IMG/VR virus record: IMGVR_UViG_3300019776_000550
Location: 27,499-91,498 of that record
Source of the DNA: a virus
DNA: 64,000 nt
Direction: 5' to 3' (one strand)
Shown here: piece by piece, positions 23,363-61,426 of the stretch
How positions within the stretch are numbered: the first letter of the stretch is position 1
Layout of the letters: each line of letters opens with the position of its first letter
Program-made: the position numbers and the translations under genes
Notes under the pieces: generated by a model
What the model saw: only the letters and a program-made list of their open reading frames with translations
Databases searched by the model: none
Told to the model about the DNA's origin: nothing

Positions 23363-23372
23363 GTTTTTTCGC

Positions 23373-23380
23373 TATATTTG
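23373..23380 (+). promoter_or_regulatory. Bacteroidota -7 promoter box
   Basis: TATATTTG matches TAnnTTTG, 19 nt before the ATG at 23400; no well-spaced -33 box. Confidence 0.45.
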
Positions 23381-23399
23381 TACAAATCATTTGATAAAA

Positions 23400-39576: not shown

Positions 39577-39735
39577 ATGACAAACTTAGAAGCATTGCAA
39601 ATCTTAGACAACATTGCTGCTCAAACAGCTTTAGTTCGCAAGGATGCTGTTTTAGTACAAACAGCTATTGATACACTAGCAAAACTGATTGCAAGTGTTG
39701 AAATTCCTGATAACCAATCAAATCAATCTGAATAA
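39577..39735 (+). CDS. small hypothetical protein (52 aa)
   Basis: Own translation MTNLEALQILDNIAAQTALVRKDAVLVQTAIDTL...; TAATG coupling. Confidence 0.6.
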   Translation: MTNLEALQILDNIAAQTALVRKDAVLVQTAIDTLAKLIASVEIPDNQSNQSE

Positions 39736-41216
39736 TGAATACTGGTAGAGTTATATATACACATCTAAGAAAGGTATATAAAGGGATTACCGATGAGTAT
39801 GGTAACTCTATTCCTGTATTAGATTGTTTTGGCAATGAAATTAAAAAGTGTAATGTAGAAGGTGATGTTGATTACATCCCTCCTACATTAAACCCTTTGT
39901 TGTGTCCTACAGATTTTCCTGTTACTACTACAGTTAATTTTACTACAACTACAAGTAATTTTACAACAACAGTAACAACCACAAGTAATGCAACAACTAC
40001 TGCAAATTGTAATTTCAATATCAATAGTGCTGATTTTGATTGTAGCAATCCATCTTATATAACAATAGAAGTAAATACAACAATAACTAGCGGAACAGTA
40101 AATGCATTGATTGTAAACACTGAAACTAGTATTACTAGAAATAACTTAACTGTTGTTAATGGGTCAGTTTATTTTAACTTACCTTATAGCATGGTAGGTG
40201 ATAATATTATAGAAATTAATTATATGGGTTGCACACGGTTAATTCAGTTAAGTATTTTGTGTAATAATATACTAAATTGCAATTTATTAAATATAATTTG
40301 CAATCAAAGTACTACATCTAGCACAAGTACGACTACAACTACAACATCATCAACGTCAACAACTTCAACAACGTCAACAACAGTTGATGTTACTTGTAAT
40401 TTGACATCAGTAACAGCATCTCAAATATTACCTAATCAAATAAAGATTGATTATGTTGGAACTAATGTTTCTAGTTGGAGTTGGCAAGTTTTACAATCAG
40501 GTACTATATTAGAAGCTGGAAATGTAACAAGCTGGACAGGAAATACATTTTATTTAAATTTACTGACTCCACTATGTAATGGTACATATACAGTTAAAAT
40601 TACACCTTCAAATTGTGCAACTTTATTTAAAGAAACATCAGTAACAATAACTGATAGTATATGTTGTACAGTAGCTATAACATCAGTAACTAATTTATCA
40701 CCTACTAAAACTAGAGTAGTTTATACAGTTACTGGAGTTGCTAATATTGATTGGGAAATTATAGAAGGAACAACATCTGTTCAAGCAGGTGCAGTAAATG
40801 TAGTTAGTGGTATTAATACAACTGAATTTGACCACGTACCTTTAGTTAATGGTAATTATGCATTTAAGTTAAGTAAAGGAGTAGCTTGTTTTGATACAGA
40901 AGCATTTGCTGTAAATACAACTACAGTTACACCTTGTTTATTTACATTAAATACACCAATTGTAACTTTAGCTAGTAGTGGTTTATCTTATGATTTTAAT
41001 ATTCCAATAAGTAATTCTCAACCTAATTATACTATTACAATATTTACAGAAAATATGTTATTAGTATCAGTGCAAGGTTCTCCTAATGGAGTATTTAGTT
41101 TGCTTAAAAACATGGGAGGTATTGATATAAGTAACAAAGTTCTTACTATTCAATTCTTATCTGAACCTGTAGGATGTACAAAATCTGTAGATGTAAATAT
41201 GGCAACAGTCTCTTAA
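39735..41216 (+). CDS. Cys-containing beta-domain protein with poly-Thr/Ser linkers
   Basis: Ig-like segments separated by T/S tracts. Confidence 0.75.
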   Translation: MNTGRVIYTHLRKVYKGITDEYGNSIPVLDCFGNEIKKCNVEGDVDYIPPTLNPLLCPTDFPVTTTVNFTTTTSNFTTTVTTTSNATTTANCNFNINSADFDCSNPSYITIEVNTTITSGTVNALIVNTETSITRNNLTVVNGSVYFNLPYSMVGDNIIEINYMGCTRLIQLSILCNNILNCNLLNIICNQSTTSSTSTTTTTTSSTSTTSTTSTTVDVTCNLTSVTASQILPNQIKIDYVGTNVSSWSWQVLQSGTILEAGNVTSWTGNTFYLNLLTPLCNGTYTVKITPSNCATLFKETSVTITDSICCTVAITSVTNLSPTKTRVVYTVTGVANIDWEIIEGTTSVQAGAVNVVSGINTTEFDHVPLVNGNYAFKLSKGVACFDTEAFAVNTTTVTPCLFTLNTPIVTLASSGLSYDFNIPISNSQPNYTITIFTENMLLVSVQGSPNGVFSLLKNMGGIDISNKVLTIQFLSEPVGCTKSVDVNMATVS

Positions 41217-41229
41217 ACAAAAAAAAGAA

Positions 41230-41946
41230 ATGAATTTACAACCTGTAGAAGTAGATAGTGCTGGTATTTATTGTATTAAGTTTTTAACTAGTGGAGATGT
41301 TGAATTAACTGGTTATAATCAAAATCAATGTCGAAATAGCACTACTATACCTGATGTAAACGGCAAGTTTATTGTAAGTTTTGATTTACCTAATGGAAAT
41401 TATATAATACCAAAAATAAGAGTGTATAAAGATTCTCTTGTTGGTTATTACAAAGATTTTTTAAATATAGCTGTAAATTGCGAACCTGTAACTACAAGTA
41501 CTTCTACAACAACAAGTACTTCTACAAGCACTTCTACTACAGTAACTACAACTGATGTTCCTACTACAAGTCCTCCTGTAGAAGGAGCATTAAAAGTTTT
41601 ATTATATGAAGCTGACACTAATGATGATAATTTCTTTCAATTATCAGTAACTCCAAATAACAATGGTACTTTTATAATTACTGATACAGGAAACAATCAA
41701 GGTTTAAAAGTTTATTATAAAATAAATGGAGCTTCTAATTTTACAGATGCAAGAACCTTATCATCTACACCAATACCTGGAAATGAAGAATTTCATATAA
41801 TTAAATATGGTTATGATGCATCTATTACAAATGTAAATGACCCTAATGACATTGGATGGAGAATGTATTATGATAGTACTAGTCCACTATCTTGTAAAAT
41901 TGCTAGTTATACAGCTTATATTGAAACAACTACACCTATTGCATAA
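41230..41946 (+). CDS. two-domain protein with Thr/Ser/Pro linker
   Basis: PVTTSTSTTTSTSTSTSTTVTTTDVPTTSPP. Confidence 0.75.
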   Translation: MNLQPVEVDSAGIYCIKFLTSGDVELTGYNQNQCRNSTTIPDVNGKFIVSFDLPNGNYIIPKIRVYKDSLVGYYKDFLNIAVNCEPVTTSTSTTTSTSTSTSTTVTTTDVPTTSPPVEGALKVLLYEADTNDDNFFQLSVTPNNNGTFIITDTGNNQGLKVYYKINGASNFTDARTLSSTPIPGNEEFHIIKYGYDASITNVNDPNDIGWRMYYDSTSPLSCKIASYTAYIETTTPIA

Positions 41947-44900
41947 TGCCTACACTTACTCAAATATTACAAGCTCCTCAATCTTTATGGACTAATGTAG
42001 TTCCTACAGATTTAAGTATATTTAATGATTTACCTGCTTTTTCTGTTGCTCCTAAAACTTATGGTAGTGGTAGCAACTTAGAAGATGAATCTGTTTTTAA
42101 CAAAAATAAAGTTAATGGTAATTTTGGTAATGGTTTTTTTCATACTTATTATGCTGGTGCAGTTGTAAGTTGGATGTCAGCTCTCGGTAAGAATAATCCT
42201 AATGGGGTACAAACATTTACAACTAACGAATTGAATAATTTAGTAGATACTTATATTGTAGGACAAGCTCCTGTTAATGCTAAATTTATCATTGTGGATT
42301 TTGAACCAGCCGACCCAACTAATCAAAGTTGGATGTGGGATTATGCACATTCTAATTTTAAAGCAACAATGGTAGCTATTGCACAACGAGTTGAAAGTGT
42401 GCATGGAAAGTATTTTTATGATTGGATTACAAATGAATTTAAATTTACATTTAATGGTGAAAATTATGATTTAAATGGAGCTAACAATGATGGATTTGCT
42501 AATAATAATAGTTCTACTAATAGTTCAGCAAAAATTTTAGCTGTACATAGAAATACAACAGGCGTAAGTAACATTATAAGTTCAACTATTAATCAAGTAG
42601 GTTTAGGTTATACTGCTATTACATATAATGCAGGTGCTAATTCTACAGGAATTTTAGATAATACTAAATGGAGAGGTGTTGAAAATACAGTACTTAAAAG
42701 TATTGACGGACTTTCTCTTAAAGCTAAACTTACACCTAATACTAAAACAGTAGCTTACTATTGGCCTTTAGAAGATAAACCTGTAAGTAATCCAGGACGA
42801 AGAAGTAATATTTATACTAAATTTAAACCCAATAGTAAAACATCAGCTTATCCTCAAAATTTAAGTGGTAAAGTTACTGTAAATGATAATAGGCTTACTT
42901 ATCCTTCTAATATTATAGAAGATAGTATTTTGGTACAAATGACATATCCAAACGTTATTCATGCTGAATACTGGTTACATGGAAGTAGTTATAATCCATA
43001 TGCTCAAATACGATATAGTAGCATAAATGGAAGTAGTACTTCTTGTATAGGAGGCTCTTTTAAGACAGGTAATTATCAAGGAAATGAATCTAGTTTACCA
43101 TGTCCTAGTGATTTAGGTGATTATATAGGTACTGAAAACAGAACTTTAACAGCGTTTATTAAAGGTGTTTATAGATATGCAGCTAGCGGAATCAAAGATG
43201 TTTTAAATGGTACACAAGTACAAGAAGTTTATCAATTTCAATATAAAAGAACTATAAACGGAGTTCTGCAAACTAATTTTAATACTTCTGTATTTGAAAA
43301 TCATACTGGACAAGCAGCTTTAGCTTGGGAACATTCACAACCTCTTTTGTTAGTTTGGAGAAAACCTAGTACAAATGAAAGAGTTATTATATTTTGGGAT
43401 GTTTTTGCAGATGCTTATGCACCTACTACATTTAAATTTAATATAGGAGCAACTGAATATACAGGTACAACAAAAGGTAATAGAGCTTATGTAGCTTATT
43501 TAGCAGATGGTGAAACAACTACTTTACCCGCAACTACAACAACAACTATTACAACAACTGTTGCTTCTGGACAATTAAACCCTGCAATAAGACCTTTTTC
43601 TGAAAGAAAAGTAGTTTGGAATGGTGCTGATATTAACAGTACAACTTTGTGGTATGATGCTATTAATCATGGAGTACAATGCTTTTCTTATTTAGATTTT
43701 TATTGGGGAATGATTGAAAGAACACAAGGTGTTTATAATTTTGATGAATTAGATTGGTTATTAAATAAGTTTAATAATGATGGAGTTAAATTAATTTTAA
43801 ATTTTAGAGCTGTAATGGCTACTCCTAATGCTATTAATCTTTGGACAATTCATAATAAAGTAGGAAACTCTTTTGTAACACAATCTTTATCACCAAGTAC
43901 TACATCGTATTTTCCTGAATCTTCTTATGATTTAGATAGATATGGCAATAAAGCTAATTATAATGCAAACTTAGGAGCTGCTGCATGTTTTGCTTATCAC
44001 GATACTTTTATAAGAAATAGATTTTTTGAGTATGTAGCACGAGTTTGTGATTATATTCATAACCATCCGCTTAAAGGAGTGGTAGAAGGTATAATGTTAA
44101 TTGACGGAGGTCTAACAGAAACTGGATTTAATGTTCAGTATGATGGTATAATGACTGATATAGGTTATAATGATAGTAATATTGCAGTATATAGAACTTT
44201 TTTACAAAGTAAATATGGTAGTATATCAAGTTTAAATTCAGCTTGGGGAAGTAATTTTGGTAGTTTTAATGAAATTAACAGAAGTAATATGCCAAAGACT
44301 GCTGATAATACTTATGATATGACATATAATGAAGGAGAAGGTCAAAGAGATTGGTACAGATTTAAACTTAAAACTCATAGAGAGTTTTATCAACAATTTG
44401 TAAATACAGTTAAAAATCCTTCATTGCAAGTAAATAGTTTAGCTACAGCAACAGGACTTAATACATTTGCTTATTTAACAGAAAACTTTAGTAGTGGTCA
44501 AGGTAGAACTTGGGGGGTTGCTGCATTTAGATATATGTATGAAATGTTTGATTGTTATTTCTCTTCTACAACATCAGGAACAAGTCCTAATCATACAAAT
44601 AGCTTCTTAGGTGATGTACAATTAAGAAACATGTTGCTTCTTGGTACATTTGGTAATAAACCAAGAGGACAAGAACAAGATAACGACCCTGTAGATTCAG
44701 CAACAGGTCAATCAAGAACAGCTAAACTTACTTTTGATACTGGTGCTAAATATACTATAGTAGCATTACAAAATGATTCTAATGCATGGTTAAGAAATGT
44801 ATTAAGTGATGATGGTGTTACAAGAACTTATAAAGAAGATGTTTTAAGAACTAAAACATTATATTGTACAAATCAAACACCTACTCCTATAACACCCGCT

Positions 44901-45056
44901 GTTACATTAAATTATTATGATGCTGATATTTTAACAGCTCCTCACAATCCTACTAATGTTGTAGAAGCTTGGAAAACAGCTACTAACATTAATAGCAATT
45001 CTAATGGAACAATGAGTCAAGTAGTAGCTATAAACTGTATTTCAAATCTTGTATAA
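41946..45056 (+). CDS. putative virion glycoside hydrolase (C-terminal GH42-like domain)
   Basis: WGMIE...G.YNFDELD and FLQSKYGSISSLNSAWG..F.SFNEI...DWYRF. Confidence 0.7.
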   Translation: MPTLTQILQAPQSLWTNVVPTDLSIFNDLPAFSVAPKTYGSGSNLEDESVFNKNKVNGNFGNGFFHTYYAGAVVSWMSALGKNNPNGVQTFTTNELNNLVDTYIVGQAPVNAKFIIVDFEPADPTNQSWMWDYAHSNFKATMVAIAQRVESVHGKYFYDWITNEFKFTFNGENYDLNGANNDGFANNNSSTNSSAKILAVHRNTTGVSNIISSTINQVGLGYTAITYNAGANSTGILDNTKWRGVENTVLKSIDGLSLKAKLTPNTKTVAYYWPLEDKPVSNPGRRSNIYTKFKPNSKTSAYPQNLSGKVTVNDNRLTYPSNIIEDSILVQMTYPNVIHAEYWLHGSSYNPYAQIRYSSINGSSTSCIGGSFKTGNYQGNESSLPCPSDLGDYIGTENRTLTAFIKGVYRYAASGIKDVLNGTQVQEVYQFQYKRTINGVLQTNFNTSVFENHTGQAALAWEHSQPLLLVWRKPSTNERVIIFWDVFADAYAPTTFKFNIGATEYTGTTKGNRAYVAYLADGETTTLPATTTTTITTTVASGQLNPAIRPFSERKVVWNGADINSTTLWYDAINHGVQCFSYLDFYWGMIERTQGVYNFDELDWLLNKFNNDGVKLILNFRAVMATPNAINLWTIHNKVGNSFVTQSLSPSTTSYFPESSYDLDRYGNKANYNANLGAAACFAYHDTFIRNRFFEYVARVCDYIHNHPLKGVVEGIMLIDGGLTETGFNVQYDGIMTDIGYNDSNIAVYRTFLQSKYGSISSLNSAWGSNFGSFNEINRSNMPKTADNTYDMTYNEGEGQRDWYRFKLKTHREFYQQFVNTVKNPSLQVNSLATATGLNTFAYLTENFSSGQGRTWGVAAFRYMYEMFDCYFSSTTSGTSPNHTNSFLGDVQLRNMLLLGTFGNKPRGQEQDNDPVDSATGQSRTAKLTFDTGAKYTIVALQNDSNAWLRNVLSDDGVTRTYKEDVLRTKTLYCTNQTPTPITPAVTLNYYDADILTAPHNPTNVVEAWKTATNINSNSNGTMSQVVAINCISNLV

Positions 45057-45077
45057 TGATATTAAAATAAATATAAA

Positions 45078-45563
45078 ATGAGTGTAACAACAACTACTGT
45101 ACCTCAACCAATTGCAACTAACCAAACAGCTACGTTTCCTATTGCAACTAGACAATCGTTGAATTTATCAACAGGTGATACTCCTTGTTCAGGAAGTTTT
45201 ACAAGTTATGCTGTTAAATCAAATTCTATTGTAGGATTAAGTAACATAACTCTAGTAGATAATATAGCATCTTTTGATGTAATAGGAGCTTTAGGTTATT
45301 TTATTAAGCAAATGTATTGCAATGGGATACTAGTTGCAGAAGCTGTTATTACTATTACAGGTACAGCTAATACAACTTTACCTTGTGGTTGTAATCCTTG
45401 TAACAATCAAGATGCTACTCCTATTTGGCAGTTTTTTAAACAAGTAGGTAGTAGTTATATTTATAAAGATATTAATAGTTGTTCACCTACATATGGTAGT
45501 GAACAATCTATGGGTAACTGTAATTCTTCTATACCTTTAAATAACTGTGGTTGCAGATGTTAA
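45078..45563 (+). CDS. Cys-rich structural-module protein
   Basis: CGCNPC, CGCRC, N-terminal TTTT. Confidence 0.7.
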   Translation: MSVTTTTVPQPIATNQTATFPIATRQSLNLSTGDTPCSGSFTSYAVKSNSIVGLSNITLVDNIASFDVIGALGYFIKQMYCNGILVAEAVITITGTANTTLPCGCNPCNNQDATPIWQFFKQVGSSYIYKDINSCSPTYGSEQSMGNCNSSIPLNNCGCRC

Positions 45564-48500
45564 ACAATTCTAACCAAATACATCAACTACAGACAGATGT
45601 CTGTTGTTTAAAAGATTTAATTAAATCTTTAGAAGCTAAAGTTAATAGTTCATGTTCTACTCCTTCATCATTAAAGATTAAGAATGATGGGATTGATATT
45701 ACACCTATTAATTTTAAAAGTCTTGATTTTATAGGAGATTTACAGGCTGCAAGTTACGGAAATGATGTAAAGATATTCGCTAATCTTACTAATGGGCAAG
45801 GTTCAGTGATTTCTGTAGCTGGAAAAACAGGAGCTGTAATACTCGATAAAACAGATGTTGGTTTAAATAATGTTGATAATACAACAGATTTATTAAAACC
45901 TATATCTACAGCTACACAAACTGCTTTAAATTTAAAACAGAACACTTTAGTAAGTGGAACTAATATAAAGACAATTAATGGACAAAGTCTGTTAGGTTCA
46001 GGTGATGTAACTATTTCAGCAGGAGGTGGAGGTACAGTAAGTTCTGTAGCACTAGACGTTCCTGTTGGATTTGCTGTATCGGGTAGTCCTATTACAACAA
46101 GTGGTATTATCGGATTGTCATTTGCAACAGGTTATTCGTTGCCTACTAATGCAAATCAATCTAATTGGACTAATGCTTATAACAATAGAATATCAGCGTT
46201 AACTACCAGTGGTAATTCAGGAGTTGCTACATTATCAAATAATACTTTAAATATTCCAAATTACACCTTAGCTGGTTTAGGAGGTCAACCTCTTAATTCT
46301 AATTTAACAACTATAGCTTCATTAACAGGTGCTAGTGGATTTTTAAAGACAAACGGTAGTGGAACATGGACAGTTGATACTAATAGCTATATTACAGGAA
46401 ATCAAAATATTACTTTAAGTGGACAAGCTATAGGTAGTGGCACAACTAATATAAGTATTACCTTAGACAATAATGCTGTAATAAATAAAGTATTAACAGG
46501 GTTTACTTCTGCTACAGGTACAATTTCAGCTACTGATAGTATACTTCAAGCAATACAAAAATTAGATGGTAACTTAGCTTCTGCAACAGCAGGGGGAATA
46601 AGTAGTGTTACAGGAACTCCAAATAGAATTACATCTACTGGAGGAAGCAATCCTATATTAGATATAAGCAGCAATTATGTAGGTCAAAGTAGCATTAATA
46701 CTTTAGGTACAGTCACTACAGGTGTTTGGAATGGCACATCTATTTCTGATACTTATATTAGCAGCGCATCAGTTTGGAATAGTAAACAATCAGGAATACA
46801 GTTTCAAGATGAAGGAGCTAATTTAGATTCTAGTGGTACAGTAAATACTGTTAATTTTACAGGAAACCATGTAACAGCTTCAAGAACTGGCAATGTATTA
46901 ACATTAGATTTTTCAGGAGGAGGTGGCAGTGGCACAACTAATTTATCATATACAGCTTCTTCAACGAATGGTATTGTAGTATCAGATACAGGAACAGATG
47001 CTACAATCCCATTAGGAAGTAGTACAAATGCAGGGTTAATCTCTCCATCACAAGTTGATAAATTAGGATTTATTTCAGTAACACAACCTGTTAACCTAGA
47101 CCAATTAGAAACAGATGTAGCTGCAAATAATGCTAAAGTAAGCAATGCTACTCACACAGGAGATGTAACAGGTAGTACAGTATTAACGTTAGCTACTGTT
47201 AACTCAAATATAGGAAACTTTAATACTGTTACAGTTAATGCTAAAGGTTTAGTAACTGCTGCAACTAATATTTCTTACTTAACAAGTAACCAAAACATAA
47301 CATTATTAGGAGAAGCTAGTGGAAGTGGCGCAACATCAATTGCTGTCACATTAAGTAACAGTGCTGTAATCAATAAAGTTCTTACAGGGTTTACATCAGC
47401 TACTGGTACTATACTTGCAACAGATACTATTCTACAAGCTATACAAAAACTTAACGGTAATTTAGCAGCAGCTACTGCTGGCGGAATATCTTCTGTTTCA
47501 GGTACTACAAATCGAATAACTTCTACAGGTGGTAGCAACCCTATACTTGACATTTCAGCTTCTTATGTAGGACAAACAAGCATTACAACACTTGGTACTG
47601 TTACAACAGGTACATGGAATGGAACTGCAATATCAGATTCTTATATTTCAAGTGCATCTACTTGGAACGCTAAGCAAACAGCTTATGCTAATTTAACAGC
47701 TATTGGTTCATTAGCAAATTCAGCAGGAGTACTTACAAATAATGGAACTGGTACATTTAGTTATACAACAGTAACAAGTAATGCTACACATACAGGAGAT
47801 GCTACAGGAGCAACTGCATTGACTGTAGTAGGTATCAATGGTACAAATTTAGCATCGTTAGGTACAGGTATTCTTAAAAATACAACTGGTACAGGAGTTC
47901 CAAGTATTGCTACAGCATCAGACTTTCCAACTTTAAATCAAAATACTACAGGAAGTGCCGCAACATTAGCTGTAGGAAGAACTATTTCTATAACAGGAGA
48001 TTTGACTTATACTTCTCCTGTTTTTAATGGAAGTACAAATATTACAGCAGTTGGTACATTAGCTACTGTAAATGCTAATATAGGTAGTTACGGTAGTAGT
48101 ACACAAGTAGCTACATTTACAGTAAATGCTAAAGGTTTAGTTACAGCAGCAGGAAGCGTTAATATATCATTAGCTGGATTAGGAGGACAAGCTCAATTAA
48201 GTGGAACAGGTTTCGTTAAAGTATCAGGAACTACTGTAACTTATGATAACAGTGTATATTTAACAGCTAATCAGAATATAACCCTATCTGGAGAAGCAAC
48301 AGGAAGCGGAACAACTTCTATAGGAGTAACATTAAGCAATAGTGCTGTAATTAACAAGGTACTTACTGGTTTTACTAGTTCTACTGGTACGATATTAGCT
48401 ACAGATACTATCTTACAAGCAATTCAGAAGTTAAATGGAAACTTAGCAGCAGCTACAGCAGGAGGTATTAGCAGCGTTAGTGGTACAACTAATAGAATTA

Positions 48501-49393
48501 CCTCAACTGGAGGCAGTAATCCAATAATTGATATTTCTGCATCTTACGTAGGACAGTCTTCTATTACTACATTAGGAACTATTACTACTGGTATATGGCA
48601 AGGAACAGCTATAGCAGATACATATATTTCTTCTGCAACAACATGGAATAACAAACAAGCTGGTATTCAGTTTAAAGATGAAGGTGTTAATTTAGGTACT
48701 TCAAATACAGTAACGGAAGTTAACTTTACTGGAGCTGGTATAACAGCATCAAGAGTAGGGAACGTAGTTACTGTAGATGTAGGAGCTACATCTGGAGTAA
48801 CAAACTTATCATACACTACATCAGCTACTAATGGAATTGTAGTTTCTGACACTGGTACTGACGCTACAATATTAGCAGCTTCAGGAACAATTGCAGGTTT
48901 AATGTTACCTGCCGACTTTACTAAATTATCTAATATTACAATTACACAACCTGTAAACTTAGATGATTTAGAATTAGATGTTGCTGATTTAACTACATTA
49001 TCAGGAGTTGCATCTAATGCTACAACACTCGGTACTTTTACAGGAACTACAATTCCTGACAATAGCACAATAAAAGCAGCTTTACAAAGTTTAGAAACTT
49101 CTTTAGAAAGTTCTTCGGGAACAGGTTCTACTCAAACTAAGATAAGAGTTGTTAATGCAAGTACAACATTAGTTGCTGCAACTGATGGAACTGTAGTATT
49201 TGATACAGCAGGAACTGTTGCTACATTACCTACTCCTGTAAATGAAAAACAACTAGTTGTAAAAAATGTAAGTACTGGTAATATAACTGTAACTGGACAT
49301 ATCGACGGAAGTTCAGCTCAAACATTTACTGTAGCTACATTAGAATCATTTAGATTTCATAGTAACGGAACAACTTGGTATTTAATTTCTTAA
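45551..49393 (+). CDS. long tail fibre protein with internal repeats
   Basis: SVAGKTGAV.L.K.DVGL.NVDNT, NIKTINGQSLLGSGD and TVNAKGLVT fibre motifs; G/S/T-rich. Confidence 0.85.
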   Translation: MQMLNNSNQIHQLQTDVCCLKDLIKSLEAKVNSSCSTPSSLKIKNDGIDITPINFKSLDFIGDLQAASYGNDVKIFANLTNGQGSVISVAGKTGAVILDKTDVGLNNVDNTTDLLKPISTATQTALNLKQNTLVSGTNIKTINGQSLLGSGDVTISAGGGGTVSSVALDVPVGFAVSGSPITTSGIIGLSFATGYSLPTNANQSNWTNAYNNRISALTTSGNSGVATLSNNTLNIPNYTLAGLGGQPLNSNLTTIASLTGASGFLKTNGSGTWTVDTNSYITGNQNITLSGQAIGSGTTNISITLDNNAVINKVLTGFTSATGTISATDSILQAIQKLDGNLASATAGGISSVTGTPNRITSTGGSNPILDISSNYVGQSSINTLGTVTTGVWNGTSISDTYISSASVWNSKQSGIQFQDEGANLDSSGTVNTVNFTGNHVTASRTGNVLTLDFSGGGGSGTTNLSYTASSTNGIVVSDTGTDATIPLGSSTNAGLISPSQVDKLGFISVTQPVNLDQLETDVAANNAKVSNATHTGDVTGSTVLTLATVNSNIGNFNTVTVNAKGLVTAATNISYLTSNQNITLLGEASGSGATSIAVTLSNSAVINKVLTGFTSATGTILATDTILQAIQKLNGNLAAATAGGISSVSGTTNRITSTGGSNPILDISASYVGQTSITTLGTVTTGTWNGTAISDSYISSASTWNAKQTAYANLTAIGSLANSAGVLTNNGTGTFSYTTVTSNATHTGDATGATALTVVGINGTNLASLGTGILKNTTGTGVPSIATASDFPTLNQNTTGSAATLAVGRTISITGDLTYTSPVFNGSTNITAVGTLATVNANIGSYGSSTQVATFTVNAKGLVTAAGSVNISLAGLGGQAQLSGTGFVKVSGTTVTYDNSVYLTANQNITLSGEATGSGTTSIGVTLSNSAVINKVLTGFTSSTGTILATDTILQAIQKLNGNLAAATAGGISSVSGTTNRITSTGGSNPIIDISASYVGQSSITTLGTITTGIWQGTAIADTYISSATTWNNKQAGIQFKDEGVNLGTSNTVTEVNFTGAGITASRVGNVVTVDVGATSGVTNLSYTTSATNGIVVSDTGTDATILAASGTIAGLMLPADFTKLSNITITQPVNLDDLELDVADLTTLSGVASNATTLGTFTGTTIPDNSTIKAALQSLETSLESSSGTGSTQTKIRVVNASTTLVAATDGTVVFDTAGTVATLPTPVNEKQLVVKNVSTGNITVTGHIDGSSAQTFTVATLESFRFHSNGTTWYLIS
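46390..48660 (+). repeat. three ~130-aa protein repeats in tail fibre
   Basis: NQNITL.G.A.GSG...AVINKVLTGFTS...YISSA..WN.KQ at about 46390, 47280 and 48260. Confidence 0.85.
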
Positions 49394-49404
49394 TATATAA
49401 AAAA

Positions 49405-49848: not shown

Positions 49849-49852
49849 TTAA

Positions 49853-52471: not shown

Positions 52472-52476
52472 ATATT

Positions 52477-53265: not shown

Positions 53266-53276
53266 AATATAATAAA

Positions 53277-53717: not shown

Positions 53718-54042
53718 ATATATCAATACTCCAACATTTCAATTAGATGATTTATCATTCAATCATAATATTGGAATTGTTTCAGATACAGTTTTTAACA
53801 CTATATCAGAAGCTTATAATAATTTACATACTTCTTATACAACAACTGTTGCTGTTGGATTAAGAAATACAGATGAATATTTATCACTAAGCGTAAAAAA
53901 ATTCATACCTTTAGTGGGTAATAGGGTAGCTAAATTTGCAAATGATTTTGAAATTTCTTATTATTACCTTATTTTAGATGGCAACGGAAAATTAATTGAT
54001 AAAAAGTTAATACATAAAACAAATATTGAAAATGAAAACTAG
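53707..54042 (+). CDS. hypothetical protein
   Basis: ORF. Confidence 0.55.
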   Translation: MKIKYINTPTFQLDDLSFNHNIGIVSDTVFNTISEAYNNLHTSYTTTVAVGLRNTDEYLSLSVKKFIPLVGNRVAKFANDFEISYYYLILDGNGKLIDKKLIHKTNIENEN

Positions 54043-54526
54043 TGCATCATTAGTAGAACAAAACGATTATGATAATGTAATAGTAACTATAAGTACTACT
54101 ACGTTTAATGTCACAACAACAACTTGTTCTTGTACTCCTATTTCACATAACGTATCAAAGACATTGTGTAGAAATGATGGATTTGTTTATGTAGAAACAC
54201 CACAATATAGAGTACCTAGTTGTGGAGATTCTACATTTCTTTCTTATCGTATTACACAACTTCCTGTTGGTGGTAGCTTGCAAGTAGATGGTGTTAATGT
54301 AACTTTAAATCAAGATTTGTCTAAACAACAAATGGCAAAACTTGTTTACAAACTTAATTATAGCAATGTAAACTCTGACACAGCTAAGTTTACAGTAAGA
54401 CTTTCTTGTGGAACATCAGCAGCTAATACTATTACATTTACAATTACAGATTGTGAATCAGCAGGTTGTCAAGATTGTGCTACTACTACTGTTCTTCCAT
54501 TGATTACAACAACTACTGGAGCTTAA
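54032..54526 (+). CDS. Ig/cadherin-like domain protein flanked by Thr tracts
   Basis: YRITQLPVGGSLQVDGVNVTLNQ...KLVY; TTTT at both ends. Confidence 0.65.
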   Translation: MKTSASLVEQNDYDNVIVTISTTTFNVTTTTCSCTPISHNVSKTLCRNDGFVYVETPQYRVPSCGDSTFLSYRITQLPVGGSLQVDGVNVTLNQDLSKQQMAKLVYKLNYSNVNSDTAKFTVRLSCGTSAANTITFTITDCESAGCQDCATTTVLPLITTTTGA

Positions 54527-55200
54527 TGTTATTATCTGATTTAGCTAATTTTATTGCTAAGAAGCAGGGTATAAGTGAGGATTTGATAGCTGTAGACTTA
54601 CTAAAGCATCAAATTCTTGCTTATAACGCTGTTGTTATAAAACAACAATATGATAAAAGCGGACTTATTGCAGAATCTTTATCTCAAACTATTAGATGTG
54701 TTAATGTTAATAAAGTTAATTCAGCAGCTTGTGGTTTAGGTGTAGATAATGACTTTGTATTGAGAACAAGTTCTAAAGTACCAAAACCTTTGATTTTAAA
54801 AAGACGAGTTCCTTTTTTATCAGTTTATAATACAGTAACTTCATCCAAAAGAGTTAGTTTAGATTATATATCACCCAATGAACTTGAGTATATTCAAGAT
54901 AGACGTTTTACAAAAAATAATATGTTTTATACTTATGAAAACGATTATGTCTATATTGTTAATGCTCTTGAAAAAGGTATTGATTTAAATACAGTTAGTA
55001 TTAGAGCTATTTGGGACAATCCATTAGAAGTAAAGCTGTTTGCAGAAAACGAAAAAATAACAGGCTGTAATCAATTATGCCAAGATTGTAGCAATGAAGA
55101 ATCTACATGTTTTCAAGATGGAGATTATAACATAGCAAGTTCAATAGAAGGACTTATATTATCTTTCTTTTTAAATGATAACATTAATAAAGCCGAATAA
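54526..55200 (+). CDS. putative tail ring protein
   Basis: crAss synteny; Q.I.CV....V...C and V.IRAIWDNP motifs. Confidence 0.6.
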   Translation: MLLSDLANFIAKKQGISEDLIAVDLLKHQILAYNAVVIKQQYDKSGLIAESLSQTIRCVNVNKVNSAACGLGVDNDFVLRTSSKVPKPLILKRRVPFLSVYNTVTSSKRVSLDYISPNELEYIQDRRFTKNNMFYTYENDYVYIVNALEKGIDLNTVSIRAIWDNPLEVKLFAENEKITGCNQLCQDCSNEESTCFQDGDYNIASSIEGLILSFFLNDNINKAE

Positions 55201-55627
55201 CAAAGTTATGGTACTTTTAGAGTACTATAAAGAATATCACGATAATGTAGATAGTAAAGTCAGCATTATTACTTATAGCAGTGTAGTTAAACTTTTTTTT
55301 AAAAAGTGTAAAGAATATATTTTTACAGGAGAAACTTTACATTTACCTATTGGTAAATTTAAAGTTAATCAAATTGTAAGAGACATTTCAGAAAAGAAAG
55401 TTTGTTTTCCTGGTACTAAAAAAGCAAGAATAGAAGCTGCTAAACAAGGTAAGTCAGAAGAAGAAATTAAATCAATTATTGTTTATAGAACTAATACTTC
55501 TTATGCAGCTTTACAGTGGAAACAAAGTACGTTATTTAATAAGAATAATCTTGACTTTGTATTTTCTACTATAAGAAACTTACATAGAGATTTACCTAAG
55601 TATTTTAATTATTCAGATTATAACTAA
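55175..55627 (+). CDS. IHF-like protein of crAss tail module
   Basis: Y..VVK.F...I..G..L.LP.G.F pattern and synteny. Confidence 0.6.
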   Translation: MITLIKPNNKVMVLLEYYKEYHDNVDSKVSIITYSSVVKLFFKKCKEYIFTGETLHLPIGKFKVNQIVRDISEKKVCFPGTKKARIEAAKQGKSEEEIKSIIVYRTNTSYAALQWKQSTLFNKNNLDFVFSTIRNLHRDLPKYFNYSDYN

Positions 55628-56427
55628 TGAATCACTCTTTAATTTCAAGTCGGTCTATTATACAAAGAATTATCAGTAGATATAACATTACTATATCTAA
55701 AAGTGAAGCTATTGAGTGGGTAGGTGATGGAATTGAAGAAATAGGTTATCATGCTGGGTTTTTTAATAAGGTTAAAAAAGTAAATGTAATTAATTATAAA
55801 ATAGATATTCCTTGTGATTTTGTTAGTTTAAATTATTTTATTTATGAAGGTAAAAAATTAAATTATGGATTGCCTAAATCGCATAATTATCCAAAGTCTG
55901 TTAATGCAGCAGAAGTAGATTTAGTAACTAACATGATAGCTAATTCTACAATAAAGCTTGATTTAAATGCATGTTGTGAAGATAGTGAATTAGAAGAAAA
56001 AGTTTATCATATAGATATACTTGAAAAGAGAGCAAGTTATCTTACTGATACTTTTAAATATACAGACCCTTCTGATGATTATTATTACACTAATTCAGGC
56101 GATGGATATAGCACTAATGCTAAAGATGAAGTTTATATTTTCTACAAAGCTTTTCCTCTTGATGATGAAAATTACCCTTTGATTATCAATGAAATCAAAT
56201 ACAGAAATGCAATAACTCATTACTTATTACTATGTTATTTAAGTAGTGGTCACAAACATCCTGTATTAGATTATGAAACTGTAAAGTTAGAAAGCAGAAG
56301 ACTCATTCAAGTTGCTGCAAATGAACACTTTAAGATGACAGTTAAAGATATGGAGAAATTTGCGGATAATTGGACAAATATGTTATTTAGAATATCTAAT
56401 AATTATAATTATTACAGTAATGGCTGA
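55627..56427 (+). CDS. tail tubular/ring protein (P22 gp4-like)
   Basis: IEWVGDGIEEIG, IPCD, YKAFPLDDENYPLI. Confidence 0.75.
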   Translation: MNHSLISSRSIIQRIISRYNITISKSEAIEWVGDGIEEIGYHAGFFNKVKKVNVINYKIDIPCDFVSLNYFIYEGKKLNYGLPKSHNYPKSVNAAEVDLVTNMIANSTIKLDLNACCEDSELEEKVYHIDILEKRASYLTDTFKYTDPSDDYYYTNSGDGYSTNAKDEVYIFYKAFPLDDENYPLIINEIKYRNAITHYLLLCYLSSGHKHPVLDYETVKLESRRLIQVAANEHFKMTVKDMEKFADNWTNMLFRISNNYNYYSNG

Positions 56428-56581
56428 CCAAATCTTAGAGCAACTTCCTCAAATATTAATGGGAATTTACTTATTTTATAAAAAAATTGACAGTACTCCA
56501 ACTAATCTTGATGATTTAAAATCAGAAATAGAAAATCTTAAAAATGAAGTTAGTTTTTTAAAAGGTAAATTATCAAAATGA
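56420..56581 (+). CDS. small membrane/coiled-coil protein (possible lysis accessory)
   Basis: Start MADQIL; hydrophobic N-terminus then heptads. Confidence 0.45.
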   Translation: MADQILEQLPQILMGIYLFYKKIDSTPTNLDDLKSEIENLKNEVSFLKGKLSK

Positions 56582-56889
56582 CATCACGACAAATAGCACT
56601 TGGACTAGCTTTTGTTATATCTATTATAATTTCTTCTTACGTAAGAAAGAATAGAAATACAGTAGTAGCAAAAAGTATTCAATCTAAAATTGATACACTT
56701 ACTAAAATTAATGATAGTACTTATGTAAGTTTAGAACTTGTATCAATAAAAGATACTGTAGTATTGCGAGAAGGTGTTTATATACAACATCCTAAAGAAC
56801 TAATTATAAGATTGAGTGCTGTTTCAAATAATATTGATGTAGATTCTACTAAAAAAACTTTAGCGTTTCAACTTAAATCAAAGCTATGA
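56578..56889 (+). CDS. membrane-anchored protein (possible i-spanin)
   Basis: N-terminal TM helix; Bacteroidota-type IDTL/KDTV segments. Confidence 0.45.
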   Translation: MTSRQIALGLAFVISIIISSYVRKNRNTVVAKSIQSKIDTLTKINDSTYVSLELVSIKDTVVLREGVYIQHPKELIIRLSAVSNNIDVDSTKKTLAFQLKSKL

Positions 56890-59800
56890 AGTATAAAGGA
56901 ATGTGGTTAGATGGTAATCCTAACCAACAATCACCTAATACAACAAGAAAGAATAAAAATGTTGTTGTTTCTGAAAGATTAGGTAGTTGGACTAATGAAA
57001 AAGGTTTTTTAAAAATAAGAGATTTTTCGTTATTTCCTAATGGGGTCATTCCTTTAAATAGGAATGACTTTGTTGTTTTTAGTACTAATGATACTAATAG
57101 CGAAATAGGACTAATTGATTCTAATAATCAATATCGAGTTATTGTAAATAATAATCAACTTGGTTTTAAAAAGAATAATCCTATTCATGGTGAGTTTTTT
57201 ATTAATAATAAAAATGAAAGAATCATAACATGGACTGATGGAAACAAAACTCCTAAATGTCTTAATATTGATAATGTACCTGCTAATTTTACAACAGGTA
57301 AATTAGAATTATTTAATTATTCATATTCACCAAATGTAGTTAGTTCTTTAGAAGAATCAGGTTCATTATTAACAGGAGCATATTATATAGCATTGCAGTA
57401 TGTAAGAGATGATAATAGTACTAGCAATTGGTTTAAAAATTATAATCCTATATTTCTTACTAATAGTTCATCTAGTACAATTTATGCTAATTATTCAGGT
57501 TCAGAAGCTGAATTGTATAGTGGTAAAAGTATAAGATTAAATTTGACAAATGTAAATACTGATTATAAATATGTTAGAGTAGCTTATATTTATCAAGCAA
57601 ATGGAGTCAAAAAAGCATTTAAAATTAAAGATACTTTAATAAACGGAACATCTTTAAATTTAGTTATTACAGGTGATGAACAAAAAGAAACTTTAGAAAT
57701 AGATGAAATTATTATAGATAAAGCTATTTATAAATCAGTAAAACACCTTACAGATTTTAAAGGTACTTTGTATGGATTAGATGTTACTCAATATAACGAA
57801 CCTAATCAGCAGTCCTTTGTTAATAATCTTACTTTTAATTGGTGTTCTTATTTAATTAATCCTACTATTGATAATATTCCAGGTATAACAACTAATGTTA
57901 AAAACTCTTATAAATATCATAATTACAATAATCAACAAAGAAGTTTTTGTCATGATGAAGTTTATGTTATTTACATAAGATTTAAATATTATTGGGGTAG
58001 TGGTAAATGGTGGGTTTGTTCAGGTAGACCTGCTGTTGGAACAGAAAAAGATAATTCACAAGAAATAAAAGAAGTTGTAAATGGAGTAACTAAGTATTAT
58101 AAAAACTATCAAGTAAATGATACTTGTAGTTTAGTAGGTGATTATCTTGGTGGTAAAGAAGGTACATTTAGTTATTGGGAGAATGAAAACGAACCTTACC
58201 CTTCAACAGGATATTATCCTAATGGAAATGTTAGACATTTCAAGTTTCCTTCATTAAATTGGATGCGAAATAATGTTTATAACAATCAATTTTATGGGAC
58301 TGTATATATGGATATATTAGGTCTTAAATTAAATAATCTTAATTTATCATTATTTAAAGATTCAGAAGGTAATCCTGCTATAGGTTATGAAATAGGCTAT
58401 GCACAAAGAGATAATAACAATAGAGTAATATCACAATCATTAGGTATTAAAAGTTGGTTTAGAACTCTTAATGTTGGTAAATCAGAATTAGTTAGTCTGG
58501 GTGGTAACTGGTCTACATCAACAAATGGTTATTCTGAATCAGGAGCTTCTGCTTTTGAAAATTATTTGAGAACATATCCATTTGAATTGCTTTATACAAA
58601 AAATAATATTAAAGCAAATAGATTTAGATTAGAATATAAAATGAATACAACAGCTTCTGTTAATAAAAGACGTGTCAATACTAGTTATTACACTGGAACA
58701 GACGATAATCTTATAACAAGTTATTCTAAAGCAGTTGGTGTAGATTTTATAGAAAATGCATCTGTTAGTTCTATAGAATCTTATAAATTATATGAAGTAC
58801 TTAATCAAGAATATATTCCTACAAATATTTTTGATAATAACAAAAATAATATATTCGGAGAAGAGCATTATCTTATTAAATATAGTTCTATAAGTCCTAT
58901 ATTTTCTAATTTAGATAATTTTAATACAAAAGTAGACCAATTAGACCTTAATGCAACAACAGGTCAAATAAGAGAAGAAAATGGATTAATTACATTATTA
59001 AATATAAGTACAGATTATTATTACGATTTTAGAAAACAAAATATAATTAATACAGGTTATCAATTCAATATTTATTCTAATGATATTATTTGGGGAGGAG
59101 ATTCTTATATTTGTGATAATAATTTTAACACATATGGTATAAATTTAAATTCTAATTATGAAAATAAATATAGTCTTGATAGTATTGAAAATTCATCTGA
59201 AAAATATGATGATAAATGGAATGGTATAAGAACCTATCATAGATATTTATGTGAAAGTAGATATAATATCAATCTTAGATATATTAATCCTAAAAATAAA
59301 ACTTATACTACTTATTTTCCAAATACTGACCAATTTAATAAATTATCTTTTTTACATATTATGGAAAGAGATAATGACCCTAATATGTTTCAACAAGGTT
59401 ATTCTAAAGATTATCATGCTCAAAATAATATTGAATTTTCAACTATTTTTGATTATCAAGCTGAATATAATACTGTACAACCCTTTAGGATAATTAGGAG
59501 TGCGCCTATAAACAAAGAATTTGATATAAACAACTGGAGAGACTGGAGACAAAATGATTATTTTGAAATAACCAAAAACAAAGGTAAAGCTAAAAACATT
59601 GAAGCTAATAAAGACTTTATATATATACACTTTGAAAGAGAACTTTTAAGAACTGTAGGTAGAGAGAAATTTGATGTAGCTGGTAAAAATGTATTCATTG
59701 GATATGGAGATATATTTGAATCAGAACCAGAAGCTATAATTTATGATTCAAATGGTTATCTTGGTACACAACATAAATGGAGTTGTTTATCTACAATGTA

Positions 59801-60122
59801 TGGTTATGTTTTTTATGATGCTGAAAAAGGTATTTGGTGGTTAATTAGTGATAAACCTACTCCTATTTCTTCAAATGGATTCATGGATTTCTTTAGAAAT
59901 GTTGATACAGTTGAATTAGATAATCCTTTTAATGCTTATGGTATTATAACTTCATTTGATGAAGAGTACAAAAGATTACTTATTACTTTTAAAAACAAAG
60001 TTCTTAAAGCTCAATATAAAAATAAATTTAAAGGTGTTTGGAAAGATGAGCAAAATTTTATAAATTCATTGCGAAGTGGAGATATAGTTTTGAAAGACAA
60101 TAAATACATGAGAATACAATGA
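56886..60122 (+). CDS. tail stabilization/muzzle protein (P22 gp10-like), N-terminal part
   Basis: KGM..D, NEKG, WTDG...P..LNID, GSL..G.Y, RSF...EVY, RH.KFP, GGDSYI, GTQHKWS. Confidence 0.85.
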   Translation: MKYKGMWLDGNPNQQSPNTTRKNKNVVVSERLGSWTNEKGFLKIRDFSLFPNGVIPLNRNDFVVFSTNDTNSEIGLIDSNNQYRVIVNNNQLGFKKNNPIHGEFFINNKNERIITWTDGNKTPKCLNIDNVPANFTTGKLELFNYSYSPNVVSSLEESGSLLTGAYYIALQYVRDDNSTSNWFKNYNPIFLTNSSSSTIYANYSGSEAELYSGKSIRLNLTNVNTDYKYVRVAYIYQANGVKKAFKIKDTLINGTSLNLVITGDEQKETLEIDEIIIDKAIYKSVKHLTDFKGTLYGLDVTQYNEPNQQSFVNNLTFNWCSYLINPTIDNIPGITTNVKNSYKYHNYNNQQRSFCHDEVYVIYIRFKYYWGSGKWWVCSGRPAVGTEKDNSQEIKEVVNGVTKYYKNYQVNDTCSLVGDYLGGKEGTFSYWENENEPYPSTGYYPNGNVRHFKFPSLNWMRNNVYNNQFYGTVYMDILGLKLNNLNLSLFKDSEGNPAIGYEIGYAQRDNNNRVISQSLGIKSWFRTLNVGKSELVSLGGNWSTSTNGYSESGASAFENYLRTYPFELLYTKNNIKANRFRLEYKMNTTASVNKRRVNTSYYTGTDDNLITSYSKAVGVDFIENASVSSIESYKLYEVLNQEYIPTNIFDNNKNNIFGEEHYLIKYSSISPIFSNLDNFNTKVDQLDLNATTGQIREENGLITLLNISTDYYYDFRKQNIINTGYQFNIYSNDIIWGGDSYICDNNFNTYGINLNSNYENKYSLDSIENSSEKYDDKWNGIRTYHRYLCESRYNINLRYINPKNKTYTTYFPNTDQFNKLSFLHIMERDNDPNMFQQGYSKDYHAQNNIEFSTIFDYQAEYNTVQPFRIIRSAPINKEFDINNWRDWRQNDYFEITKNKGKAKNIEANKDFIYIHFERELLRTVGREKFDVAGKNVFIGYGDIFESEPEAIIYDSNGYLGTQHKWSCLSTMYGYVFYDAEKGIWWLISDKPTPISSNGFMDFFRNVDTVELDNPFNAYGIITSFDEEYKRLLITFKNKVLKAQYKNKFKGVWKDEQNFINSLRSGDIVLKDNKYMRIQ

Positions 60123-61426
60123 TTTTTCTTTCTGCACAACCTGATGATACTTATTTTATATGGCAATTACAAGTACTAACTAACAACCTTAAAGAGTTAG
60201 AAGTAGATAGAGAAAGTATTCATATTTTAGTAGGTTATAAAAAAGAAATTAATCCTCTTTGGGTTGAACATATAGATACTGTTTATGGTAATGTTCATTT
60301 TATAAAAGATGAAAGAGTTTCATCTACTTATTTATCTTCTATTAGACCTCATATTATTAAAAAGTTTATGATGGCTAACAGCAAATATTTAGATGAATAT
60401 ATATTTTATCATGATGCAGATATTCTATTCGGAGAAATACCTTTGTTTGAAGGTATGGAAGATGGTAGAGTTCATGTAAGTAGAACTTCATACATTGACT
60501 ATAGTTATATTACAAGTAAAAATTCACCTTCTTTGCTTAAAGACATGCTTAATGTAGTAGGTATTGATGAAACTACAGTAGCTGAAAGACAAAATAATAC
60601 AGGTGGAGCGCAATATTATTTCAAAGGATTAGGTTATAACTTTTGGGACAAGGTAGAAAGAGATTGTGAAATAATGTACAAAATGTATTTTAACAATCTT
60701 GATACTTATAAAAAAGAATTTGCTAGTGCAGGTAGAAGTATTGATGAATATGATTTTCAAATATGGACTACTGATATGTGGGTAGTTCTTTGGAATATTT
60801 GGTTATTAGGTTATAAAACTTATGCTAACAATGAATTAGACTTTGCTTGGCCTACTACTGATAAAAATGAATGGATTAAAAAGTATAAGATATTTCATAA
60901 TTCAGGAGTAAGTTCAAAAGAAAGATTTGATTTTTTATACAAGCAAGATTTTCATAATGTATTTCCTTATGGTCAAATTTCTCATTTACATCCACAAATT
61001 AAATTTGATAACGGGGTAGTAATAGATGTTACTCAACAAGTTTATATAGAAGCAATTAATAAAACAGGTGATATAATAAAAGGTTTAAACAAACTTAATA
61101 AAAATGTTATATCATGTGTATTAATTGTTAAAATTGATAATTTTGATTCTATAAAAGAATCAGTTGATAGTTTTATAAATCAAACTTATGCTAGCAAAGA
61201 ACTTATAATATTTAATATTAATGAAACAAATATTACACTACCTGAATCTTACAAAAAAAGAGGCATTAGGTTTATTAACATTACTCGCAGCTTTGTATCT
61301 AATGCGCCTTATGTTTCTTTAGAAAATGCTAGAAATGATGCTAATTCATTAGCTTTTGGTAGTAAAATTATTAGATGGGATAATATGTCTTATTTATCTG
61401 ATTATTTAGAAAAATTACATGGATAA
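60119..61426 (+). CDS. glycosyltransferase (GT-A, HDAD motif) fused to a truncated GT2-like domain
   Basis: SAQPDD.YF.WQ, Y.SSIRPH, FYHDADI, GGAQY, W..DMW..LWN.W, IFHNSGV; C-terminal ISCV...SF.NQTY..KELII. Confidence 0.75.
   Translation: MIFLSAQPDDTYFIWQLQVLTNNLKELEVDRESIHILVGYKKEINPLWVEHIDTVYGNVHFIKDERVSSTYLSSIRPHIIKKFMMANSKYLDEYIFYHDADILFGEIPLFEGMEDGRVHVSRTSYIDYSYITSKNSPSLLKDMLNVVGIDETTVAERQNNTGGAQYYFKGLGYNFWDKVERDCEIMYKMYFNNLDTYKKEFASAGRSIDEYDFQIWTTDMWVVLWNIWLLGYKTYANNELDFAWPTTDKNEWIKKYKIFHNSGVSSKERFDFLYKQDFHNVFPYGQISHLHPQIKFDNGVVIDVTQQVYIEAINKTGDIIKGLNKLNKNVISCVLIVKIDNFDSIKESVDSFINQTYASKELIIFNINETNITLPESYKKRGIRFINITRSFVSNAPYVSLENARNDANSLAFGSKIIRWDNMSYLSDYLEKLHG

Follow-up and report, generated by a model that had tools for sequence, protein, structure and literature searches.

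Positions 27,499 to 91,498 of the virus record IMGVR_UViG_3300019776_000550, a stretch of 64,000 nucleotides (nt) that we call the window and to which all coordinates refer, contain a glycosyltransferase (GT) gene and a set of genes whose products carry tracts rich in threonine (Thr) and serine (Ser), which we read as a candidate system for O-glycosylation of the phage's own virion proteins. The record is complete at 91,498 bp and has direct terminal repeats; the window takes up its final 64 kb and has ~28% G+C. Genes for a large terminase, a portal and a major capsid protein (capsid family PF23898), all of crAss type, lie in the window, and the genome is that of a freshwater crAss-like phage. 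Every gene from ~23.4 kb to the window end lies on the plus strand in one late block. Metagenomes of freshwater, aquatic and aquaculture origin from at least six studies, the possible source not counted, contain near-identical DNA, and contigs from four of them span 39700-45600 with only a few dozen substitutions.

The candidate acceptor proteins are encoded as follows (lengths in amino acids, aa).

39735..41216, plus strand: tract protein 1, 493 aa, with tracts at nt 39924-40013 and 40302-40388
41230..41946, plus strand: tract protein 2, 238 aa, with a Thr/Ser tract at nt 41485-41556 between two domains
41946..45056, plus strand: tract protein 3, 1036 aa, with an N-terminal part, a Thr tract at nt 43515-43565 and then a glycoside-hydrolase-like TIM-barrel domain
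45078..45563, plus strand: marginal candidate, 161 aa, with a single run of four Thr at nt 45087-45098
54026..54526, plus strand: weak candidate substrate, 166 aa, with a TTG start and four runs of 3-4 Thr in nt 54089-54133 and 54479-54523

The first three open reading frames (ORFs) are consecutive genes of the late operon, and their tracts comprise 20-29 aa (the two of ORF 39735-41216), 24 aa (ORF 41230-41946) and 16 aa, 11 of them Thr (ORF 41946-45056). An earlier note on this DNA had listed poly-Thr/Ser tracts in all five proteins, had assigned the five to the virion, and had described the tracts as written in mixed codons. The codons are indeed mixed (ACT, ACA, ACC and ACG with AGT, TCT, TCA and AGC), and therefore the tracts are not simple microsatellites. 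The listed positions were also right, and when residues were shuffled within each protein and scored by summed runs and by local density, clustering proved to be far beyond composition for ORFs 39735 (p = 0.002), 41230 (p < 0.0002) and 41946 (p < 0.0002), with a maximum of 11 Thr in 16 aa. Three of the five proteins are thus solid, while clustering is weak in ORF 54026-54526 (p = 0.0005 for summed runs, p = 0.08 for local density) and marginal in ORF 45078-45563 (p = 0.03-0.10). No further ORF of the window passed a criterion of at least 80% Ser/Thr over 10 aa, and the one run of six Thr codons in the genome lies within ORF 39735.

The product of ORF 39735-41216 consists, in order, of an N-terminal module, a Thr tract, a beta domain, a Thr/Ser tract and three Ig-like beta domains. 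Its AlphaFold2 model, built from a 5-sequence alignment, is moderately confident (predicted local distance difference test, pLDDT, 64.5), and the tracts fall in low-confidence segments, residues 27-91 and 175-219, between all-beta domains with pLDDT ~80-88; we read these segments as putative disordered linkers. In a structure search of BFVD the beta domains matched Ig-like phage proteins of the Big-1/FN3/SprB-repeat type, and residues 575-868 of the ORF 41946-45056 product match PF02449 Glyco_hydro_42 (E = 5e-11) and PF01373 (E = 5.5e-5). Given that the three genes lie between the capsid and tail-fibre genes, and given the Ig-like beta domains and the glycoside-hydrolase-like domain, we infer that their products are virion proteins, which is as far as the earlier assignment to the virion can be taken. 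No signal peptide or hydrophobic segment was found in the tract proteins (maximum 19-aa hydropathy <= 1.37).

Tracts at both positions of ORF 39735 are retained in four database homologues, with differing length and sequence, and in the closest relative, L165, the ORF 41230 ortholog keeps a Thr tract in the corresponding position. In one freshwater population (run X5) the ORF 41230 tract is longer by 12 nt, inserted in frame at nt 41529 and encoding T-S-T-S, the surrounding 5.9 kb containing point substitutions only. Because the positions are kept, the lengths and sequences vary and an in-frame variant exists, the tracts behave as selected, length-tolerant linkers. Read depth is meaningless at nt 40341-40382, where short pieces of unrelated organisms are attracted to the tract. 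RNA runs contained only small shares of the window.

The enzyme and its parts lie further downstream in the same late block.

60119..61426, plus strand: glycosyltransferase gene, 435 aa, matching phrog_4417, AlphaFold2 pLDDT 93
60119..61093, plus strand: predicted catalytic GT-A domain with GT8-like fold, residues 1-325
60410..60421, plus strand: DxD metal/nucleotide-sugar motif H98-D99-A100-D101, with conservation in 51 homologues
61100..61426, plus strand: first half of a degenerate GT2-type second domain, ending at the DxD position, residues 328-435

By sequence, residues 1-286 match positions 1-270 of 293 of phrog_4417 (E = 1.5e-45), a family to which no function is assigned; no Pfam family was found for the N-terminal domain at E <= 0.01 in any of 51 members, and no PDB chain matched the GT by sequence at E <= 10. 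By structure, the model gave more than 250 PDB matches at E <= 1e-3 with Foldseek, in agreement with VIA-align, in which residues 1-325 reached Z scores of 15.0 with glycogenin (222 residues aligned at a root-mean-square deviation of 3.3), 14.3 with the Skp1 galactosyltransferase AgtA, 14.1 with the catalytic domain of UGGT and 13.9 with LgtC; GlyE (12.6) and chlorovirus PBCV-1 A64R (10.6) also align with the GT-A domain, and WbbM is among the top solved fold matches. D99, D101, H260 and K275 are invariant in the 51 homologues and H98 is at least 90% conserved, and all 17 family-invariant residues of the N-terminal domain, DxD included, are present in the window GT. No transmembrane segment, signal peptide or hydrophobic segment was found in the protein. 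The structure search that the earlier note had proposed for this gene therefore returned the GT-A fold with GT8-type proteins as best matches, and the high model confidence and the invariant aspartates uphold its description of a GT-A enzyme with an HDAD motif embedded in the late operon. On this model ORF 60119-61426 encodes a soluble, metal-dependent GT-A glycosyltransferase of an unnamed family.

Residues 328-435 match only the first ~100 residues of CgT, TarS, ArnC and GtrB (Z 8.5-9.7), and have W-D-N-M where the full-length relatives P0009 and P0011 have D-D-D-D followed by ~190 more residues. The same truncation and loss of DxD are found in the nearest relatives, at 55-72% identity, and a PF00535 profile search of the genome gave no match, either to the C-terminal remnant or to another GT2-type enzyme. 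The GT2-type domain of the relatives probably extends the glycan; given that the second domain is truncated and lacks DxD here, the window phage would add only what the first domain adds.

The N-terminal domain matched 713 representative clusters in a phmmer search of 1.84 billion proteins, and the family occurs in crAss-like phages, jumbo phages and phages of Enterococcus, Lactococcus, Lactobacillus, Staphylococcus and Clostridium. The earlier note had proposed a co-occurrence test of this family with poly-Thr structural proteins, and the two do co-occur. We examined 80 IMG/VR viral contigs with a homologue, of 433 found, with flanks of 10 kb, and dereplicated them at 60% identity into 30 clusters. 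Within 10 kb of the GT, 64 of the 80 loci have a strong poly-Thr ORF (111 of 1152 ORFs). The gene immediately upstream of the GT (-1) carries a tract in 15 of 30 clusters (50%), the gene immediately downstream (+1) in 0 of 30, and genes at least five positions away in 9 of 308 cases (2.9%), the difference between the -1 gene and distant genes being highly significant (Fisher p = 2.8e-12). As a control we took 80 crAss-like loci centred on the capsid gene, retrieved with a capsid alignment since a single-protein scan had matched nothing. Only 7 of 1087 ORFs passed there, nearly all of them borderline; a single one was strong, and it comes from the closest relative of the window. The GT profile was absent from 25 of 26 control records of at least 20 kb, and the remaining match covers the GT2 part only.

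Runs of six Thr codons point in the same direction: they occur in 22 of 26 GT-positive records versus 0 of 10 GT-negative crAss-like records of 56-98% completeness (p = 3.9e-6), and in all 6 of the 6 near-complete GT-positive records. They lie almost always on the strand of the GT, and in two jumbo phages of 366 kb and 362 kb every such run is 1-2 kb from the GT gene. Enzyme and poly-Thr proteins, among them bona fide capsid, tail-tube and muzzle proteins, are strongly coupled genetically throughout the family.

Phages with annotated virion proteins provide what amounts to a natural experiment. In Enterococcus phage phiFL1A the GT homologue, gp51, comes after the major tail protein and before the tail chaperones, and the major head and major tail proteins both end in poly-Thr tails that are the only six-Thr runs of the genome. 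The tail protein of Streptococcus phage Javan47 shares 60% identity with that of phiFL1A, and its capsid C-terminus aligns up to the same point; neither in Javan47 nor in Lactobacillus phage phiJL-1, which has homologues of these proteins as well, was a GT found anywhere in the genome, or a Thr tail. In Lactococcus prophage bIL285 the GT directly follows the capsid gene and K-T9-R-H-D forms the end of the tail protein; in Clostridium phage FA88 the GT follows a gene in the tail-tube position, whose product ends in the same T-rich tag as a head-module protein; and Chryseobacterium phage MA9V-3 has long internal tracts in the genes at -1 and -3, the paper on this phage mentioning neither glycosylation nor threonine. 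The pairing is also present in Enterococcus phage Planchet. The Thr tags are alike within one phage and different between phages.

Two of these genomes have additional Thr-rich reading frames at the capsid gene. In bIL285 (L248, 6944-6985) the frame of the major head protein, read past its TAA stop, gives N-D-K-T6-R-H-D, the tag with which the major tail protein also closes. In Planchet (L249, 6703-6885) a ~45-aa Thr-rich extension is encoded in the gap before the GT gene, in another frame that overlaps the capsid gene's end. These sites are candidates for programmed read-through or frameshifting, which would put a poly-Thr tail on a minority of the capsid subunits.

Several GT-bearing phages also have an N-terminal module of ~50 aa (M..TG[RK]..Y..L ... 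DPDY[IV].P ... CP) right before the first Thr tract. It is found at 39735-39920 of the window, at 9606-9760 and 10709-10870 of L082, at 8713-8860 of L048, at 7187-7330 of L132 and at 9063-9200 of L155, and its carriers include MA9V-3; of the 80 crAss-like control loci, none but that of the window's relative had it. That the module of the window resembles the others was judged by eye, BLAST linking the window protein only to L165. The module is possibly a shared virion-attachment domain.

The gene next to the GT in the window is of a different kind.

56886..60122, plus strand: gene immediately preceding the GT, for a muzzle-like virion protein of 1078 aa that has no Thr tract

The profile PF25731 crAss_MUZ matches the N-terminal 240 residues only of this ORF (E = 2.5e-17). 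The GT start overlaps its stop by 4 nt, and the GT end overlaps the start of the next gene by 8 nt. In two crAss-like contigs, L039 and L034, the GT lies directly behind a muzzle-type gene that does carry poly-Thr tracts, the muzzle-type assignment coming from PF25731 on L039 and from phrog_14478 on both. Given that the arrangement of these contigs matches that of the window, the place of the GT behind the muzzle gene is conserved, with the tract carriers differing in the window phage.

The next gene, ORF 61419-62129 (236 aa), weakly matched PHROG families of large virion structural proteins in their C-terminal parts, among them positions 2056-2195 of 2289 of phrog_37948 (E = 2e-4). It may be that a once-continuous muzzle gene (56886-62129) is now in two pieces with the GT between them; in pairwise BLASTP neither the window muzzle-like protein nor the 236-aa ORF matched the crAss muzzle protein of L039.

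Members of the family are also found in bacteria, as two-domain proteins of ~580 aa, mostly from Chitinophagaceae and Sphingobacteriaceae, with few poly-Thr neighbours. The two loci that we inspected, from Chitinophaga and Sphingobacterium (L094, 6562-14104; L085, 6815-12364), encode radical-SAM, LanC-like and GT1 proteins and a C39 peptidase/VKOR/thioredoxin fusion, and are candidate gene clusters for glycosylated RiPPs (ribosomally synthesized and post-translationally modified peptides). The occurrence of paralogues in peptide-modification clusters fits a family of peptide- or protein-directed enzymes.

We consider O-glycosylation of the virion's Thr tracts by the product of ORF 60119-61426 to be the best reading of the locus, with a probability of roughly two in three. 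The enzyme would be made together with the late structural proteins and would work in the cytoplasm of the infected cell, moving sugar from a host nucleotide-sugar to the Thr and Ser hydroxyls of the tracts before or during assembly. Its acceptors would be the disordered linkers in the products of ORFs 39735, 41230 and 41946, and possibly 54026, and the particle would be assembled with mucin-like O-glycosylated linkers, the proposed benefit, akin to the stiff stalks or glycan shield of the earlier note, being that these would be extended, protease-resistant or shielding. The transfer to Thr and Ser, the donor sugar, the anomeric outcome and the benefit are what we infer; GT8-like folds are those of retaining enzymes. 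Host general O-glycosylation could not reach the tract proteins since it acts on exported proteins and they have no signal peptide, and a phage-encoded cytoplasmic enzyme would therefore be needed.

Beyond the window, we think it fairly probable that the poly-Thr tracts and this GT-A family form a portable, self-contained 'glyco-tag' system by which many lineages of tailed phages, including crAss-like podophages, jumbo phages, Bacteroidota myophages and Firmicute siphophages, place mucin-like O-glycans on capsid, tail-tube, muzzle and fibre proteins. In bIL285 and Planchet the tag on the capsid would seem to be reached only when ribosomes read through the stop codon of the capsid gene or shift frame near it.

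Several observations weigh against glycosylation of the tracts by this enzyme. In the window the GT is immediately preceded not by a poly-Thr gene but by the muzzle-like gene, which has no tract, and it lies 15-20 kb downstream of the tract genes, for the family an atypical arrangement. The tracts of the window, at 11-29 aa, are shorter than those of many relatives, and the three tract proteins are placed in the virion by presumption. LgtC and WbbM, whose acceptors are lipo-oligosaccharide and O-antigen, score as high as protein-directed enzymes, and fold similarity therefore does not fix the acceptor. Four of the 26 GT-positive records have no six-Thr run, three of them being fragments with mixed Ser/Thr tracts near the GT and one having none, and the GT-positive and GT-negative sets are phylogenetically matched only for the Firmicute pair and the crAss-like set. 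The claim of the earlier note that the enzyme decorates the Thr tracts thus gains from the adjacency of the genes across the family, from their shared presence and absence and from the Firmicute comparison, and is held back in the window itself by the distance of the GT from its presumed substrates.

Given that the GT in the window is flanked by the muzzle-like gene and the 236-aa virion-type ORF rather than by tract genes, and that its bacterial paralogues lie in peptide-modification clusters with few poly-Thr neighbours, it is reasonable to propose that the tracts are bare flexible linkers and that the enzyme instead modifies the muzzle or cargo proteins encoded around it, or a small peptide, as the bacterial paralogues may do. 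We regard this as unlikely: the coupling of the family to poly-Thr is both positional and strand-specific, tails and enzyme were gained or lost together in the comparison of phiFL1A with Javan47 and phiJL-1, and in the crAss-like relatives the muzzle-type protein adjacent to the GT itself carries poly-Thr. An enzyme that alters host envelope glycans (lipopolysaccharide, capsule or S-layer glycan), for instance to block superinfection or to aid release, is improbable, even though phage GT-A enzymes that alter O-antigen are, as a matter of general knowledge, well known and though LgtC and WbbM are among the top fold matches. The window GT is soluble, has no membrane partner genes nearby, and is located in the late structural block with translational coupling to virion genes (lysogeny genes were not looked for), and an action on host glycans would give no reason for the co-occurrence with poly-Thr.

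The truncation of the second domain and the loss of its DxD might instead mean that the GT is a decaying or purely structural remnant in which the fold was kept and catalysis lost. This is quite improbable given the complete set of family-invariant residues in the N-terminal domain and the very high confidence of the model, and given that the truncated architecture has been kept in relatives at 55-72% identity and the gene itself at >=99% identity across freshwater samples of four studies. Least probable of all, and to our minds hardly credible, is glycosylation of the phage DNA at a hypermodified base as an anti-restriction measure. The diversity of phage DNA glycosyltransferases (Pyle et al. 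2024, as cited in PMC12619734) speaks for it, but glycosylation of hydroxymethyl-base DNA would need a gene of the thymidylate-synthase type, and a PF00303 search of the complete 91.5-kb genome gave no match to a thymidylate-synthase/hydroxymethylase-type gene. Moreover, the GT lies in the structural and not the replication block, its homologues in small temperate siphophages such as phiFL1A and bIL285 lie between capsid or tail genes, and DNA modification, too, would leave the coupling to poly-Thr without a reason. Glycosylation of the Thr tracts in the virion is therefore the reading that we carry forward.

Three further features of the window deserve mention. The ORF at 45551-49393 encodes a fibre-like protein of 1280 aa with three near-identical modules of ~300 aa, each with N-Q-N-I-T-L-S-G... 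and ...I-L-Q-A-I-Q-K-L-[DN]-G-N-L-A; the protein is 17% Thr, yet without Thr runs. At 62126-64000 an ORF with a lysozyme/tape-measure-type domain (phrog_9570, E = 1e-23; phrog_20388 endolysin, E = 9e-11) runs off the window end, and its remainder is probably to be found at the beginning of the record, which is circularly permuted; its product is probably an ejected cargo protein or a cell-wall-degrading protein. At 22000-23400 both GC skew and gene orientation flip, with minus-strand genes to the left and plus-strand genes to the right, and this is a region of the divergent-transcription or origin type.

To our knowledge, a few mycobacteriophages are the only phages for which experiments have demonstrated glycosylation of the particles, which there shields virions from antibodies. 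Literature searches returned no paper on the present enzyme family or on poly-Thr combined with a glycosyltransferase in phages. The pairing described here involves a different enzyme family, with ~700 representative clusters, and an acceptor signature, poly-Thr, that is easily recognised. Were our reading true, glycosylated virions could be predicted from sequence, many of the 'low-complexity' linkers in phage structural proteins would be explained, and virion glycosylation would be a widespread, genome-predictable trait and not a mycobacteriophage curiosity, with consequences for phage stability, mucus adherence, immune recognition and the design of phage therapy. Given that cultured carriers exist (phiFL1A, bIL285, Planchet and MA9V-3), the pairing is directly testable.

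Among known systems, the best structural matches of the GT are GT8-type enzymes such as glycogenin, LgtC and GlyE (Z 12.6-15), which share with it the DxD motif and an invariant downstream His. Several of the fold matches are protein-directed, namely glycogenin, AgtA, UGGT, GlyE and the PBCV-1 capsid enzyme A64R, and GlyE, from a pneumococcal pathway, acts on a Ser-rich repeat adhesin, although it extends an existing N-acetylglucosamine instead of starting a chain. By sequence, however, the GT falls outside GT8, in that it matches neither Pfam GT8 nor any PDB sequence.

The earlier note had likened the motif layout of the enzyme to that of GT95 and GT96, the plant and algal hydroxyproline O-arabinosyltransferases (HPATs) and peptidyl-serine galactosyltransferases, which are peptide-directed, GT-A-like enzymes with extended acceptors rich in Ser or hydroxyproline. 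That likeness shrinks to a remote resemblance. A look-alike search of the ESM-Atlas gave a template modelling score of 0.73 (by query), a value that comes without alignment or E-value, to Chlorophyta HPAT/ShK proteins, and PF23452 is found on 10-12% of the members of two related viral clusters there. In the window genome PF23452 HPAT had no match at E <= 10, a search of unproven sensitivity since the control genomes hold no member, and no solved GT95 or GT96 structure was among the structure matches of the GT, the best solved structures being GT8-type. The plant enzymes are, moreover, Golgi membrane proteins, whereas the window GT is soluble.

Chlorovirus PBCV-1, with A64R, and the fibril glycosylation of giant viruses offer a parallel in virus-encoded cytoplasmic GT-A enzymes that modify virion proteins independently of host machinery. 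These are, however, viruses of eukaryotes, with atypical N-linked or other linkages and no poly-Thr acceptor logic. The general O-glycosylation of Bacteroidota, which is periplasmic and directed to a D-S/T-A/I/L/V/M/T motif, shares with the window system the probable host phylum and the Thr/Ser acceptors, but it acts on exported proteins, and the tract proteins of the window have no signal peptide.

By function, the nearest known system is the virion glycosylation of mycobacteriophages Che8, Corndog and Myrna (Freeman et al. 2023, as summarised in PMC12363180 and PMC12619734). There, too, phage-encoded GTs modify the phage's own particle proteins, and the acceptors, as presumed for the Firmicute members of the present family, are tails at the C-termini of capsid and tail-tube subunits. 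The enzyme family is a different one, given that the 75 phage records found with tblastn at E <= 1e-5 include no Mycobacterium phage, and different too are the acceptors, which here are poly-Thr and in the window phage internal linkers, and the hosts, which are Bacteroidota-type and Firmicutes. The pairing is thus best described as phage-encoded virion glycosylation with a different enzyme family and a different acceptor signature, of which the window, with its non-adjacent enzyme and truncated second domain, would be a somewhat atypical member.

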